Positions 14,373 to 17,852 are shown, counted from the stretch's first letter. The stretch: DNA of 64,000 bases from an uncultured Candidatus Saccharibacteria bacterium (GCA_964549705.1 CAZJUX010000002.1:3007-67006), one strand, 5' to 3'. Notes: generated from the sequence alone by a model not told the origin. Numbers and translations are program-made.

Positions 14373-16076
14373 CTATCTGAGCCAATCTTCTGAGCCATTG
14401 ATGATAGTGCCAGCAGGGATCTCGCCTGCGATGAGCCGTTCAGCAACAGGCATTTCGAAGTGATTGGCAATTAAGCGCTTAACTGGTCGAGCCCCAAATA
14501 GCGGGTTGTAGTCAGCTAATAATAATTGTTCGATAAGTTGGTCGGGCACTTCAAATTTGATCTGTTGCGAGGCTAGTTGTTGTTCGAGCTTGATAATTTC
14601 TCGTTTAGCGAGAGTAATTAATTGAGGCACTGCTAAAGGTTGGTAAACTAGGATCGCGTCAAATCGATTAATGAACTCGGGGCGAAAATTCGATAACAAA
14701 ATCGGCATTAGGTTTTTCTTAACAAAACTTTGGCTAGATATATCAATCCCTTGGCTGGTGGCAGAAACAATTTCTTGGCTACCGATGTTTGATGTCGCTA
14801 GCACCATAGTATGGGTGAAATCTATCGTTTCGCCACTGGAGTCAGTTAACCGCCCATCGTCTAGGAGTTGCAGAAAAACATCGAATAATTTAGCGTGGGC
14901 TTTTTCAATCTCGTCTAGTAAGACTAGCGATGACGGTTGCCTCTTGACGGCGCTTGTTAATTGACCACCTTCTTCATAACCGACATAGCCTGGTGGCGAG
15001 CCAGTTAGTCTTATAGCACTATGGGCTTCACTGAACTCACTCATATCTAATCGGACTAGCGCTTTGGGGTTTTCATAGACAATTGACGTCAGAGCTTTGG
15101 CGGTCTCGGTCTTGCCAACGCCAGACGGTCCGAGGAGGAGAAATGAGCTACGGGGACGATGAGTATCTCCAAGCCCCAATTCATTTTTGATAATTGACCG
15201 AGTAATAACTTTCAAAGCTTTAGTTTGTCCGATAACATGCTCATTTAATTTCTTTTCAAGTGAAGCTAAGTGGGCGTTACCTTTGTTCTTTAGGCTTGAA
15301 ACAGGGATTTTTTCACGCTCAGCGATAAACAGCTTGATATCTTCAGTGGTAATCTGCTTTTTTCCATCGAATATCGCTTTGACGGCGACGTCCTCAATCA
15401 GTCTCAGGCCTATATCAGGCAGAGAGCGGCCATGATTGTAGCGGTTGGTGAGGAGGATAACCTCGTCTATAGTTTTTTCGTCAACCAAGACGCCTTGGTT
15501 TGTAAATGCTTGGTGGAGGATACCCTTGATATCCGACCGACTTAATTCCTCAATTTCCAGCCGCGTGAGCAATCTACCAAAAGTATAGTCGCCTTGAAAA
15601 GTTTTATCGTAGGCCGTTTTTGTCATGCTAACAACTAGACGAATGTTTGGAATATCGGCAATCATCTGGAGCAAGCTAACAGTTTGCTCGAGACGCACTG
15701 GATCGTTGACCGCTAGTAATTGAATATCTTCGATGACGATAATAGCTCCTGGAAGGTCGGTGAGATTTGTGCGGATAGCTTGGTAGCAGGCTTGAATGCT
15801 ATCACCAGCCACTAATAGATTTAGAATCGGGTTTATATCAAGCTCATACATCTTGCCGGGCAGAACGGGGATAGCCTCATCGGCGACTGCTTGAGCTAGC
15901 ATAGTTATGAGGCTACTTTTTCCGATACCTGGTTCGCCAATAATTACGGCGTGGTGATGGTTCGGTTTGAGCAAAATCTGGGCTAACCTCCTAAGTTCGG
16001 TTTCACGACCAGAAATAGGCGGTGCATTCTTCGACCTAGAAACTAGATTGAGGAATTTAATTGATACTTCACTCAT
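14373..16076 (-). CDS. Atypical Hsp100/Clp AAA+ ATPase (no N-domain, no M-domain, degenerate D1)
   Basis: D1 GEPGIGKS with Walker B IIVIEDIQ; D2 [37 protein letters not shown]. Confidence 0.85.
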   Translation of the reverse strand: MSEVSIKFLNLVSRSKNAPPISGRETELRRLAQILLKPNHHHAVIIGEPGIGKSSLITMLAQAVADEAIPVLPGKMYELDINPILNLLVAGDSIQACYQAIRTNLTDLPGAIIVIEDIQLLAVNDPVRLEQTVSLLQMIADIPNIRLVVSMTKTAYDKTFQGDYTFGRLLTRLEIEELSRSDIKGILHQAFTNQGVLVDEKTIDEVILLTNRYNHGRSLPDIGLRLIEDVAVKAIFDGKKQITTEDIKLFIAEREKIPVSSLKNKGNAHLASLEKKLNEHVIGQTKALKVITRSIIKNELGLGDTHRPRSSFLLLGPSGVGKTETAKALTSIVYENPKALVRLDMSEFSEAHSAIRLTGSPPGYVGYEEGGQLTSAVKRQPSSLVLLDEIEKAHAKLFDVFLQLLDDGRLTDSSGETIDFTHTMVLATSNIGSQEIVSATSQGIDISSQSFVKKNLMPILLSNFRPEFINRFDAILVYQPLAVPQLITLAKREIIKLEQQLASQQIKFEVPDQLIEQLLLADYNPLFGARPVKRLIANHFEMPVAERLIAGEIPAGTIINGSEDWLR

Positions 16077-17698
16077 GCGGCAGCCCTCGTGGTCAAGGGT
16101 TTATTGGCTCGTCTATTATTCTTCTTCTTTCTTCTGTCATGGGAGAATATTGCCGATATGTCGCCGTATTCATGGGGAAATTGTTGGCTCAATGGCTTAG
16201 ACCCTTGTTCCCAATTAGCTATTGTTTGTTGGTTAGGGGTTGTTTGGAGGGTGGAAACAATTAAATCACCGTAATCATGATCAGCTGTTATTTCTTGCTG
16301 GACAGGCTGTCGTCTCACCTCTGAACGCCTCGCATTTAATCGGTCTAAGCCAAGTTTTGCGTTTGCCACTTTGGGTGCCGTGACGCGAGTTTCAGGATGC
16401 TGTCCTACAGTGGTTTGGTCGTAGACAATTTGCTCGGCTTGTTTTTCTGTAGGACTGGGTTCCACATGTGGCTGAGCAACAACTTGCTCGGTAGCTCCAT
16501 CGTTATACTCGGTAGAAGTGATTGCAATTTCAGCAGGCTGAACTGAATCGTTAGCGACAGATTGTACTTCTTGGACTACGATTTTTTCGTCAACTTGACC
16601 AGCTGTTTCAGTTTCGGCTTGAGTAACTTTATTCGTCGTTTCGCTGATTTTGTTGTTGGTAGATAATTTACCAATTACACCAATAACGTTTGTCGCAGCG
16701 GTTTTTGATCTGACGACATCGCTGAGTTTGTCAGCCACTACTCGTTCTCTATTTACTACGAGCTGTCTGGCTACTTCTTTAGTTTGCTGATCAGAATCGA
16801 TCTCACTTTGCTTAATTATTGTTGGCGAAGTAGCCGATGATTCTGATATGGGCAGAAATAGTTCGTCAACTAGAGAGGGACCCCGGGGATCATCGCCATC
16901 TTCCGGTGGGGGGGTAGTGTCTGTCAAGGTGATCTCGTTTACCTCATCTACACTGGCGGGCTCAACAGGTGCTGTCTCAGATTCAGTTTGCAGAGCTTCT
17001 GCGATTCTTGTTTCTATTAGTCTTGGATTGGATTGCTTCTCGTCCCCTGAAGCAATGCTGTTTTCGGTTGATTCGGCTGAAGCAGTATTGTCATCGGTTT
17101 CTTTATCGGTAGTTGGGATCCTAGAATCATTACTAGCCTCAATAGGATGACCACCAGCTATTCCGGTTTCCCTGGATTCTGGCTCTTCTATCTCAATTAA
17201 CAGTTCAGACGATAAGTCAAAGGGCAGCCGACCATTGCTGTCGATATCCCCCGGCGTAAAGACTTGAACAGAATAATGCTTTTCTATCTGTCCTTTATCG
17301 TTTACCTCAGTCTTGAATAAGACCTTGGCCTCTTGGGGTTTCAGGGTCGCTTTCATTTCGGCTATAGCTTGTTCTTGATTACCATCCTTAATTATAAGTT
17401 CGTGCTTTTCTTCATCCATTAAATCGGTATTATCGATTTCGTCGGCAGGGAACATACGTCCGTTGCTATCAATAATGTATTTGCATACTTGAGTTCGCTG
17501 TTCGGTATCATGGGTCTCATGGCTTGTCGCGGGAGCTTTGCGGGGTCGTTCACCCTCGAAGACGACCACTGCTGTCTCTGTGTCCGTGTCGCCAACAGAG
17601 TCTTCATAGGAAGTAGTCAAATCCAAGTTTTCCTGGGGTGTTTCAGAAGAGAGAGCATCGTAGGCACCAAGATCAACAGTAGATACACTCGTCTCCAT
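16073..17698 (-). CDS. Acidic, low-complexity hypothetical protein (541 aa)
   Basis: Strong RBS AAGGAGAGGAG; E/D/T/S/P-rich; stop overlaps the ATG of the Clp ATPase (ATGA coupling). Confidence 0.8.
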   Translation of the reverse strand: METSVSTVDLGAYDALSSETPQENLDLTTSYEDSVGDTDTETAVVVFEGERPRKAPATSHETHDTEQRTQVCKYIIDSNGRMFPADEIDNTDLMDEEKHELIIKDGNQEQAIAEMKATLKPQEAKVLFKTEVNDKGQIEKHYSVQVFTPGDIDSNGRLPFDLSSELLIEIEEPESRETGIAGGHPIEASNDSRIPTTDKETDDNTASAESTENSIASGDEKQSNPRLIETRIAEALQTESETAPVEPASVDEVNEITLTDTTPPPEDGDDPRGPSLVDELFLPISESSATSPTIIKQSEIDSDQQTKEVARQLVVNRERVVADKLSDVVRSKTAATNVIGVIGKLSTNNKISETTNKVTQAETETAGQVDEKIVVQEVQSVANDSVQPAEIAITSTEYNDGATEQVVAQPHVEPSPTEKQAEQIVYDQTTVGQHPETRVTAPKVANAKLGLDRLNARRSEVRRQPVQQEITADHDYGDLIVSTLQTTPNQQTIANWEQGSKPLSQQFPHEYGDISAIFSHDRRKKKNNRRANKPLTTRAAA

Positions 17699-17749
17699 TT
17701 AACTCCTCTCCTTGTAATCATTTGTCGAGAGGGCGTTGAAATAAGGCTT

Positions 17750-17852
17750 AACTCTTTGACGCGAAGATTACGTTATAGGTGAGATGGTTTTCTGACTTTA
17801 CAGTTGCGCGACAGTGAGGGAATCTCGCCCTACTTGCCCAAAACTCGACCAA
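17750..17852 (-). ncRNA. Compact cobalamin (B12) riboswitch candidate
   Basis: Minus strand reads GGGCAAGU-AGGG CGAGAUU CCCU-CACUGUCGCGCAACUGUAA-AGUCAGAAAACC, then hairpin UCUU-CGCGUCA-AAGA whose loop can pair with the L5 CGCG. These match the P4 T-loop, GCAACUGUA and AGUCAG hallmarks of cobalamin riboswitches as I recall them; not scored with a covariance model. Confidence 0.72.

Follow-up and report, generated by a model that had tools for sequence, protein, structure and literature searches.

A two-gene operon preceded by a cobalamin riboswitch was identified on the minus strand of a 64,000-nucleotide stretch of DNA from an uncultured Candidatus Saccharibacteria bacterium (GCA_964549705.1, CAZJUX010000002.1:3007-67006; this whole stretch is referred to as the window, and positions are counted from its first letter). 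The operon encodes an acidic protein, here called X, and a short Clp/Hsp100 ATPase. Comparison of loci shows that the riboswitch, X and the Clp travel as one unit across the Saccharimonadia and at least one other lineage of the Candidate Phyla Radiation (CPR), and the Clp phylogeny indicates that the window carries a reduced form of a larger cassette. With moderate confidence, we favour the joint reading that this is a B12-riboswitch-controlled X-Clp unit made when B12 is scarce, in which X would be the client of the Clp and the pair would have a role in B12 starvation.

A cobalamin riboswitch in all testable loci

The window belongs to an assembly (G000) of 768,906 bp in 33 contigs, about 95% complete, whose nearest protein relatives bear the labels Candidatus Saccharibacteria or Saccharimonadia. 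By cmscan, the leader of the operon matched the Rfam family AdoCbl-II (RF01689; AdoCbl, adenosylcobalamin) with 37.3 bits against a gathering score of 36.5, with model positions 1-81 all aligned. A preliminary description of this DNA, made from the sequence, had called the leader cobalamin-riboswitch-like, and the match above the cut-off bears this out. Every helix of the aptamer was assigned by the covariance-model alignment, giving an architecture of P1, P3 and three hairpins with the invariant core GGGCAAG..CUGUCGCGCAACUGUAAAGUCAGAAAACC. The low score can be explained by the weak P1 (GGU(C)GAG/CUCACC), which contains a bulge. The classic cobalamin model (RF00174) gave 19.7 bits at the same site, and no other match of the cobalamin clan was found in the whole assembly.

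To place the leader among its relatives, Clp homologues were drawn from a large protein collection and loci were taken at falling Clp identity, each being scanned with Rfam. Loci with a readable upstream region were considered testable, which excluded L099, L101 and L107, where the contig ends too early. A cobalamin riboswitch was found before an X-like gene coupled to a short Clp in 17/17 testable loci, at Clp identities from 86% to 37% and in two CPR lineages or more. Among these loci the gene pair never occurred without the leader, and the link between leader and genes proposed in the preliminary description therefore held. In the closest relative, L106 (Clp identity 86%), the riboswitch scored 44.6 bits at the same position as in the window. 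It was followed by L090 (60%, 48 bits), L108 (56%, 39.7 bits), L092 (53%, 53.9 bits), L094 (48%, 46 bits), L095 (40%, 47.3 bits with the classic model RF00174) and L110 (37%, 42.8 bits), the last from a genome labelled Candidatus Doudnabacteria. In a second Saccharimonadia family (f33), eight loci had riboswitches of 36.1-53.9 bits. The aptamer was on the correct strand ahead of X and the Clp in these eight, in L090, L092, L094, L095, L106, L108 and L110, and in two further genomes of the window's own family, G057 and G141. The Rfam model missed L109 (Clp 41% identical) at E <= 0.1. There, the invariant core GGGCAAGUAGGG..CUGUCGCGCAACUGU..AGCCAGAAAACC was recognised by eye together with a downstream hairpin, the core being split by two large insertions in the P4 and P6 hairpins (about 2880-3010). 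Surveys using RF01689 or RF00174 alone will therefore undercount the leaders of this cassette.

The distribution within families followed the same pattern. In the window's own family, an AdoCbl-II-type match was present in 29/151 genomes, nearly always one each, and the short Clp in only 3/151, which are the three that have the riboswitch and X (the window's genome, G057 and G141). The full-length Clp orthologues in G057 and G141 are 60-70% identical, and an X-like acidic open reading frame (ORF) and a riboswitch lie ahead of both. In f33, the cassette was found in 9/26 genomes and the riboswitch in those nine, plus one match at a contig end and one weak match. As the riboswitch distribution in f33 follows the cassette, the riboswitch and the genes are inherited as one unit.

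In an alignment of 12 orthologous leaders, the aptamer core was invariant, while pairs in P3 and P4 had changed on both sides; the sequence of P1 was different in every leader, with complementarity kept. With its borderline score settled by the recurrence in 17/17 loci, the window aptamer is, on this comparative evidence, a genuine class II (AdoCbl-II) cobalamin riboswitch.

At about 10-40 nt ahead of the aptamer, several four-gene loci of f33 (L097, at about 2407-2440, L098, L100, L102 and L105) also share the inverted repeat TTGTGGT-N13-ACCACAA, with CATAA after it. This may be an operator or promoter element, adding a second layer of control.

The short Clp ATPase and protein X

The start of the Clp gene overlaps the stop of X by 4 nt (ATGA at 16076-16073). 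An acidic protein of 541 residues coupled through ATGA to an Hsp100 ATPase, as previously described, was thus seen again in the ORFs and their overlap, and the positions given earlier for the leader, CCUCUC, GAGAGG and the genes all agreed with the sequence. The Clp gene ends 16 nt from the convergent pgi gene.

The Clp consists of two tandem AAA+ modules, D1 and D2, with the P-loop region of D1 at residues 42-150, and aligns to residues 176-730 of ClpA. D2 (Pfam AAA_2, 4e-55, residues 307-475; ClpB_D2-small, 4e-14) is canonically ClpB-like, with a GYVG pore loop, the DE Walker B LLDEIEKAH and a sensor-2 GAR motif (GARP). Its closest solved relative is ClpB of T. thermophilus, with 283.7 bits over D2. 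The protein begins directly at D1 with no Clp_N match in Pfam, and the M-domain is absent: in the alignment to solved structures in the Protein Data Bank (PDB), ClpB residues 393-518 are missing and query residues 234-240 bridge ClpB 392-519. The position of the ClpP loop reads QGIDI, and the hydrophobic-Gly-Phe/Leu motif (IGF/IGL) was found in 0/18 orthologues; ClpP itself is encoded elsewhere in the genome.

D1 is degenerate. It has a Walker A, ED in place of DE, and a shortened pore-loop-1 segment without Tyr, and these defects are common to 18/18 orthologues. For the Walker B, 15 orthologues of the Saccharimonadia type have IVIEDIQ, and the three most distant have DS, DN or DD. It therefore looks, from the motifs, as though only the D2 ring is catalytically and mechanically competent. 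None of the NCBIfam equivalog cut-offs was reached, with 392.9 bits against 1232.1 for ClpB (TIGR03346), 376.3 against 993.2 for ClpA (TIGR02639) and 315.4 against 885.0 for ClpV (TIGR03345). D2 also weakly matches the PADLOC models PDC-M37B and DolB, over the generic AAA+ core only.

X evolves fast and contains 18.5% Asp and Glu. Its small folded N-terminal domain (N-domain) is followed by a long acidic region that is disordered, and the chain ends in a conserved tail (..GDISAIFSHD-RRKKKNNRRANKPLTTRAAA). X matched nothing in Pfam, NCBIfam, PHROGs or PADLOC, and in a search against 5.8 billion proteins the only match was X itself. Its positional orthologues, from 525 to 916 residues long, have in common a domain of some 110 residues, weakly conserved and close to the N-terminus, followed by a disordered acidic middle that is often rich in Pro and highly variable in length. 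The tail has a hydrophobic-x-hydrophobic-x-F motif, then 10-15 residues rich in Arg and Lys, then a terminal run of Ala or Val. X of the window ends in RAAA, and the tails of 18 extracted orthologues include QAAA, SIAA, AIAA, SLAV, TAAV, TATV, GATV and EARA. A transfer-messenger RNA was sought for comparison of its tag with this tail, and ARAGORN found none in the 95%-complete assembly.

The N-domain (residues 64-174) was modelled by AlphaFold2 from an alignment of seven sequences, with a mean predicted local distance difference test score of 84 and a predicted template modelling (TM) score of 0.74. The model comprises a beta-hairpin, two helices and three long strands. Foldseek found nothing significant for it in the PDB (best E = 0.03, TM-score <= 0.49), with PAS/LOV-like and SecB-like folds among the insignificant matches.

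A reduced form of a four-gene cassette

Four genes, for X, the short Clp, a small protein and a soluble ATPase that resembles VirD4 and TraD, make up the operon in other Saccharimonadia and in one genome of the Doudnabacteria. The operon runs on past the Clp in f33, L095, L109 and L110, and in f33 stop and start codons overlap from each of the four genes to the next. The third gene encodes 79-142 residues; its product often likewise ends in ..AA and had no match in Pfam, NCBIfam, PHROGs or PADLOC. The fourth encodes a soluble ATPase of 714-730 residues with TrwB_AAD_bind, TraG-D_C and T4SS-DNA_transf above the Pfam cut-offs and weak matches to TraD, VirD4 and CedD (CedD NF053655, 1e-6). L109 is without the small gene, and the last gene of L095 and L110 encodes about 430 residues.

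In a maximum-likelihood tree of the Clp, the seven two-gene loci, including the window, formed one clade with support of 100/99. This clade sits within the four-gene forms; the deeper branches are L109, L095 and L110. As the single two-gene clade nests among four-gene forms, the window holds, on this tree, a derived and reduced two-gene form of an ancestral four-gene cassette, resulting from a single loss. It retains the core of the cassette, namely the riboswitch, the acidic tail-tagged protein and the coupled Clp with a degenerate D1, while the third and fourth genes are missing from the operon. The preliminary description had proposed a new system; its place outside the known B12 regulon stood, but the pair is no invention of this one genome.

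The only genes resembling those of type IV coupling proteins (T4CPs) in the window's genome are two large, membrane-anchored ones on other contigs (C9 7929-10910, 993 residues; C1 36560-39181, 873 residues). Their ATPase domains are 38-43% identical to that of the soluble T4CP-like protein of the cassette. They could be stand-ins for the lost fourth gene, or unrelated to it.

The expression platform and the direction of the switch

Downstream of the aptamer, the 12 aligned leaders have an invariant UCUUCGC inside a hairpin at the position of P13, which reads CUCUU-CGCCGNA-AAGAG in the relatives. Farther downstream, when folded leader by leader, a pyrimidine stretch pairs with the Shine-Dalgarno (SD) sequence; in the window these are CCUCUC at 17732-17727 and GAGAGG at 17710-17705. 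The two arms co-vary between leaders (CCCCUCU/AGAGGGG, AACCCUCUC/GAGAGGGUU, CCCCUCA/UGAGGGG and UUCCCC/GGGGAA), and in f33 the helix was much more stable than shuffled controls, with z = -2 to -4.2 in 5/8 leaders. In G057 and L090, the best pairing partner of the SD is the 5' arm of the P13-like hairpin. RNAalifold, run on a MAFFT alignment of the 12 full leaders, gave only P3, P4, P6 and P13, with the variable P1 and SD helices misaligned.

Almost all characterised cobalamin riboswitches are OFF switches, and it is from this general behaviour that we infer, by analogy, an OFF polarity here. The P13-like loop (CGCCGNA; CGCGUCA in the window) might form a kissing interaction with L5 (UCGCG), with four possible pairs in the window, three in most relatives and no covariation. 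In the window only, the 5' arm of P1 (GGUCGAG) can alternatively pair with CUCGAC beside the anti-SD, freeing the SD in silico. In this model, which would be the classical layout of an OFF switch, the predicted unpaired probability of the SD falls from 0.72 with the alternative pairing to 0.36 with the aptamer closed. The alternative pairing was not relied on further, as it is not kept in L106.

In L097, L098, L102 and L105, the hairpin that masks the SD (7-10 GC-rich pairs) is followed directly by UUUUU, while the window has UU only. The SD-sequestering helix of f33 may also act as an intrinsic terminator.

Occurrence with B12-dependent ribonucleotide reductase

All of the carrier genomes tested (12/12) have a class II, that is B12-dependent, ribonucleotide reductase (RNR), and among the genomes examined the cassette is restricted to genomes with this enzyme. 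In the window's own family, an RTPR-type nrdJ was found in 9/151 genomes, with all three carriers among them; the chance of three carriers all falling within those nine is, by our own arithmetic, about 1.5e-4. In f33, NrdJ_Z was above its cut-off in 15/16 genomes tested, with only fragments in G289, a carrier, and an RTPR-type nrdJ was found in none of the f33 genomes. In the window's genome, nrdJ is the only RNR found, with no nrdA, nrdB or nrdD detected by tblastn.

The preliminary description had stressed that the operon is divergent from nrdJ. This is so in the window lineage and in G141, where a cobA-like gene lies in between, but G057 has its nrdJ on another contig and f33 carries no nrdJ of this type; adjacency is therefore a feature of the window and G141 only. 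A direct role of the riboswitch in regulating nrdJ was considered and rejected, as it lies on the opposite strand and reads away from nrdJ, and as the link to X and the Clp persists where nrdJ is elsewhere. Within the genus, more than 20 genomes (G063 and G129 among them) are without the Clp, and two of these that were searched further have neither the riboswitch nor nrdJ; in this genus sample, the short Clp was found in the window's genome only. The set of riboswitch, Clp and nrdJ thus looks like an accessory island in this genus.

Proposed function and alternative explanations

In the mechanism that we propose, binding of B12 would close the aptamer and the SD would stay paired with the upstream CCUCUC, allowing X and the Clp to be translated only when cobalamin is scarce. 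By analogy with other cobalamin riboswitches, OFF control by B12 through SD pairing is moderately likely. The D2 ring would then grip the basic, Ala- or Val-ended tail of X and thread or extend its polyanionic chain, and, because the ClpP-docking loop is absent, X would not be degraded. It is also moderately likely, judging from the gene arrangement and the tail, that X is the dedicated client of this Clp. The pair would be part of a B12-starvation response and, in an epibiont whose only RNR needs AdoCbl, its most likely purpose would be to help corrinoid acquisition, although a starvation response of this kind is a guess. In the four-gene form, X would be passed on to the coupling-protein-like translocase, and in the window's genome this part may fall to either of the two T4CP paralogues that are anchored in the membrane. 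The earlier proposal of a B12-responsive client or adaptor with its remodeller, outside the known B12 regulon, is supported as a reading of the loci.

A bolder version, which we consider doubtful, is an undescribed vitamin-starvation machine of ultra-small epibiotic CPR bacteria. Here, a motor working through D2 only would thread X, whose N-domain would be exported or deployed as a trap for corrinoids of the host cell or the environment, and the full version of the cassette would hand X to the T4CP-like ATPase that has no anchor.

Several observations weigh against the proposed mechanism. The window aptamer is only 0.8 bit above the RF01689 cut-off, and its helix CCUCUC/GAGAGG, at -11.9 kcal/mol and only modestly more stable than shuffles (z = -1.3), is plausible but not significant on its own. 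The alternative pairing of GGUCGAG with CUCGAC is not seen in the closest relative, and inspection of L5 and L13 by eye revealed no convincing or co-varying complementarity for a kissing interaction. In the Foldseek search of the PDB, no B12-binding fold matched the N-domain of X in structure. The arguments for X as a client are gene coupling, co-inheritance and the tag-like tail, and these only. Moreover, the cassette is present in 9/26 f33 genomes and in 3 of about 9 genomes of the own family with nrdJ; as many genomes with a class II RNR are without it, it is dispensable for B12-dependent life. Lastly, BtuCD-type permeases (FecCD) are essentially absent from f33 with or without the cassette, which gives no complementary pattern for a role in uptake.

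The strict association with class II RNR could instead mean that X and the Clp service the B12 enzyme, as an ATP-driven chaperone or reactivase that loads the cofactor of NrdJ, strips damaged cofactor or remodels apo-NrdJ, with parallels in the diol and glycerol dehydratase reactivases and in chaperones of the MeaB/MMAA type. The presence of the enzyme in 12/12 carriers, its standing as the only RNR of the window's genome and the divergent arrangement in the window and G141, with the cobA-like gene between in the latter, are all consistent with this. However, the Clp is conserved alongside two very different types of RNR, monomeric and RTPR-like in the own family and NrdJ_Z-like in f33, which speaks against a specific partnership between the proteins, and the cassette is missing from most genomes with a class II RNR. 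A cofactor chaperone would also be expected when B12 is present rather than repressed by it, and a polyacidic disordered region of 300-700 residues and a T4CP-like ATPase have no obvious part in cofactor exchange. We therefore regard a service role for NrdJ as rather unlikely.

The fourth gene suggests another possibility, that of a B12-independent route to deoxynucleotides or nucleic-acid handling, in which, with NrdJ short of cofactor, an ATPase of the DNA-translocase type and its partners import or process DNA for salvage and X is a polyanionic DNA mimic that gates the motors. The logic would be like that of the B12 riboswitches on nrdAB and nrdDG, which stand before these genes within the window's own family. 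In favour of this are the reliance of CPR bacteria on salvage, the fourth gene, which belongs to the VirD4/TraD/FtsK-HerA group and has a weak match to the DNA-translocating CedD (the NF053655 match noted above), and the strongly polyanionic character of X with its Arg-rich tail. Yet it is the translocase-type gene that the window form has lost, while X, the Clp and the riboswitch were kept, and none of the loci examined has a nuclease, a ComEC-like channel or a nucleoside kinase linked to the cassette. This explanation is unlikely.

It is similarly improbable that the riboswitch is real but its logic or ligand departs from the default, being an ON switch or responding to another corrinoid form, with the genes made in the presence of corrinoid and serving, for instance, its processing or storage. 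The sequence does not reveal polarity, and in most relatives the SD hairpin is predicted whether the aptamer is closed or open. Class II aptamers vary in their corrinoid selectivity, and the P13 loop and L5 are without clear complementarity. Set against these points are the OFF behaviour of almost all characterised cobalamin riboswitches, the helix occluding the SD and then a U-run in several f33 leaders, which is the usual architecture of the OFF state, and the lower predicted accessibility of the SD in the window upon closure of the aptamer.

A selfish, mobile or defence-type module spread by horizontal transfer, in which the riboswitch only tunes expression to host physiology and has no role in the B12 economy, would account for the very patchy distribution, including the more than 20 genomes of the same genus without the Clp. 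The weak matches of D2 to PDC-M37B and DolB and the T4CP-like genes, which are typical of mobile elements, also fit. It is nevertheless very unlikely: no integrase, relaxase, repeats or phage genes were found around the loci, the PADLOC matches are restricted to the generic AAA+ core, the Clp tree fits a single loss leading to the two-gene form rather than rampant transfer, and the strict confinement to genomes with a class II RNR would be left unexplained. Finally, that the Rfam match in the window is due to chance or decay, with X and the Clp expressed constitutively here, might be argued from its margin over the cut-off, the bulged P1 and the z-score of its anti-SD helix, but is scarcely credible given a core aptamer that is invariant against orthologues scoring 42-54 bits and the clear match at the same position in L106.

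Relation to known systems

Compared with the AdoCbl-II family (clan CL00101; env8-type short aptamers), the window riboswitch is similar in having P1, P3, three hairpins and no peripheral extension, a hairpin at the P13 position downstream of the aptamer, and putative control of translation through the ribosome-binding site. It differs in that this site lies in a separate hairpin farther downstream and not in the P13 loop, in that L5 is UCGCG where the Rfam consensus has a CCU-type loop, and in that the genes do not belong to B12 transport or synthesis, nor do they encode an isozyme that is independent of B12.

The Clp resembles the class 1 Hsp100 proteins (ClpB/Hsp104 and ClpA/ClpC/ClpV) in its tandem AAA+ modules with a ClpB-type D2 and D2-small domain. 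Unlike them, it is devoid of Clp_N, M-domain and ClpP loop, and neither the catalytic Glu nor the pore-loop Tyr is present in D1. It also scores a third of the NCBIfam equivalog cut-offs or less, and its gene is coupled in translation to a single partner gene, to which it is dedicated.

The last gene of the four-gene form has the domains of T4CPs such as VirD4, TrwB, TraD and DotL, and the Arg- and Lys-rich tail of X is comparable to the positively charged C-terminal signals of type IV secretion substrates. Unlike T4CPs, the cassette protein is without a membrane anchor or linked VirB genes, and it is absent from the window form. A looser analogy may be drawn with ESX/type VII secretion (EccA and EccC), where a cytosolic AAA+ remodeller, an ATPase of the FtsK/HerA superfamily and small or tail-tagged clients are likewise combined in one operon; beyond the P-loop, however, there is no apparent sequence relation to EccA or EccC, and there are no membrane components or WXG proteins.

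A survey of 2,918 Patescibacteria genomes reported 5,713 VirD4-like T4CP genes, of which 148 were near virB4, and suggested possible exaptation; it mentions neither Clp nor riboswitches (PMC12102498). In a full-text literature search, no paper was found that ties cobalamin riboswitches to Clp ATPases or to Saccharibacteria or CPR bacteria.

Cobalamin riboswitches are highly reliable pointers to B12 function, and nearly all of their targets have been assigned to transport, synthesis or B12-independent isozymes. Here, one is devoted to a protein-unfolding motor together with its polyacidic disordered partner; the bacteria in question are unable to make B12 and, in the case of the window's genome, depend on it for their only RNR. 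The cassette offers a well-defined starting point for studying how episymbiotic CPR bacteria deal with a shortage of vitamins. It would offer a first functional context, B12 limitation, for orphan Hsp100 proteins without the N-domain, M-domain and ClpP loop, and the same context for part of the T4CP homologues of Patescibacteria that are unlinked to type IV secretion (PMC12102498). The window itself adds the reduced two-gene form, the presence of the unit in its own family, with small genomes of 0.5-1.4 Mb, beside an RTPR-type nrdJ and cobA, and the phyletic statistics in two families. By its two-gene form, it narrows the indispensable core to the riboswitch, the acidic protein and the Clp motor, which is small enough for direct tests.

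Features of the window and other observations

The positions of the elements discussed above and of the neighbouring genes are collected in Table 1.

Table 1. Positions of the riboswitch, the operon and neighbouring features in the window.
Feature	Position	Strand	Basis
AdoCbl-II (class II, short) cobalamin riboswitch aptamer	17777..17851	-	Rfam RF01689, 37.3 bits
P13-like hairpin UCUU-CGCGUCA-AAGA, downstream of aptamer	17753..17767	-	Columns T85-C91 (TCTTCGC) invariant in 12 leaders; RNAalifold prediction
Anti-SD CCCUCUC	17727..17733	-	Pairs with SD in minimum free energy fold of expression platform
SD GGAGAGGAG, 4 nt ahead of ATG at 17698	17703..17711	-	Sequence
X, 541-residue acidic protein	16073..17698	-	ORF, ATG at 17698
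Folded N-domain of X, residues 64-174	17177..17509	-	AlphaFold2
C-terminal tail of X, last 40 residues, candidate recognition tag	16076..16195	-	Tails of 18 X orthologues
Short Clp/Hsp100 ATPase, 567 residues	14373..16076	-	Pfam, NCBIfam, PDB alignment, motif table
nrdJ, RTPR-type AdoCbl-dependent class II RNR with ATP-cone	18128..20440	+	NCBIfam TIGR02505, 1.8e-78
cobA/btuR-type corrinoid adenosyltransferase (presumed)	25662..26231	+	58% identity to cobA-like gene adjoining riboswitch in G141
Perfect 16-bp palindrome ACGCTATATATAGCGT, NrdR-box-like	17939..17954	.	Between riboswitch promoter region and nrdJ

The gene listed as cobA/btuR is presumably of this type, judging from its N-terminal P-loop motif and the known features of the family. 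The palindrome ACGCTATATATAGCGT differs at two positions from the NrdR consensus (acaCwAtATaTwGtgt) and is one of four NrdR-box-like matches at that level in the 64 kb; NrdR homologues are present on contigs C8 and C9 of the same genome. A second palindrome, GTGA-N6-TCAC (CRP/FNR-like), lies at 17898-17912, also between the riboswitch promoter region and nrdJ, and a TGTGA-N6-TCACA box was seen upstream of the riboswitch in L108.

Elsewhere in the window's own family, a single AdoCbl-II riboswitch is followed in at least 18 genomes by an orphan protein, here called Y (L035 6135-7469, L038 6159-7463, L049 6167-7489, L052 6124-7431 and about 14 more). Y has about 420-556 residues, no Pfam match and CxxC...CxxC zinc-ribbon-like motifs near its C-terminus, and a hidden Markov model of the Y family (about 435 residues) showed no similarity to X. 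It is often flanked by a gene for a transporter of the major facilitator superfamily upstream and a CorA-like gene downstream, and the genomes with Y had no RTPR-type nrdJ match at the threshold used. In one of them (G080, locus L053), two cobalamin-type riboswitches lie 4 kb apart (6001-6086 and 9939-10020), one before nrdA-nrdB and one before Y. As both are headed by a riboswitch in this genome, Y appears to be co-regulated with the B12-independent RNR.

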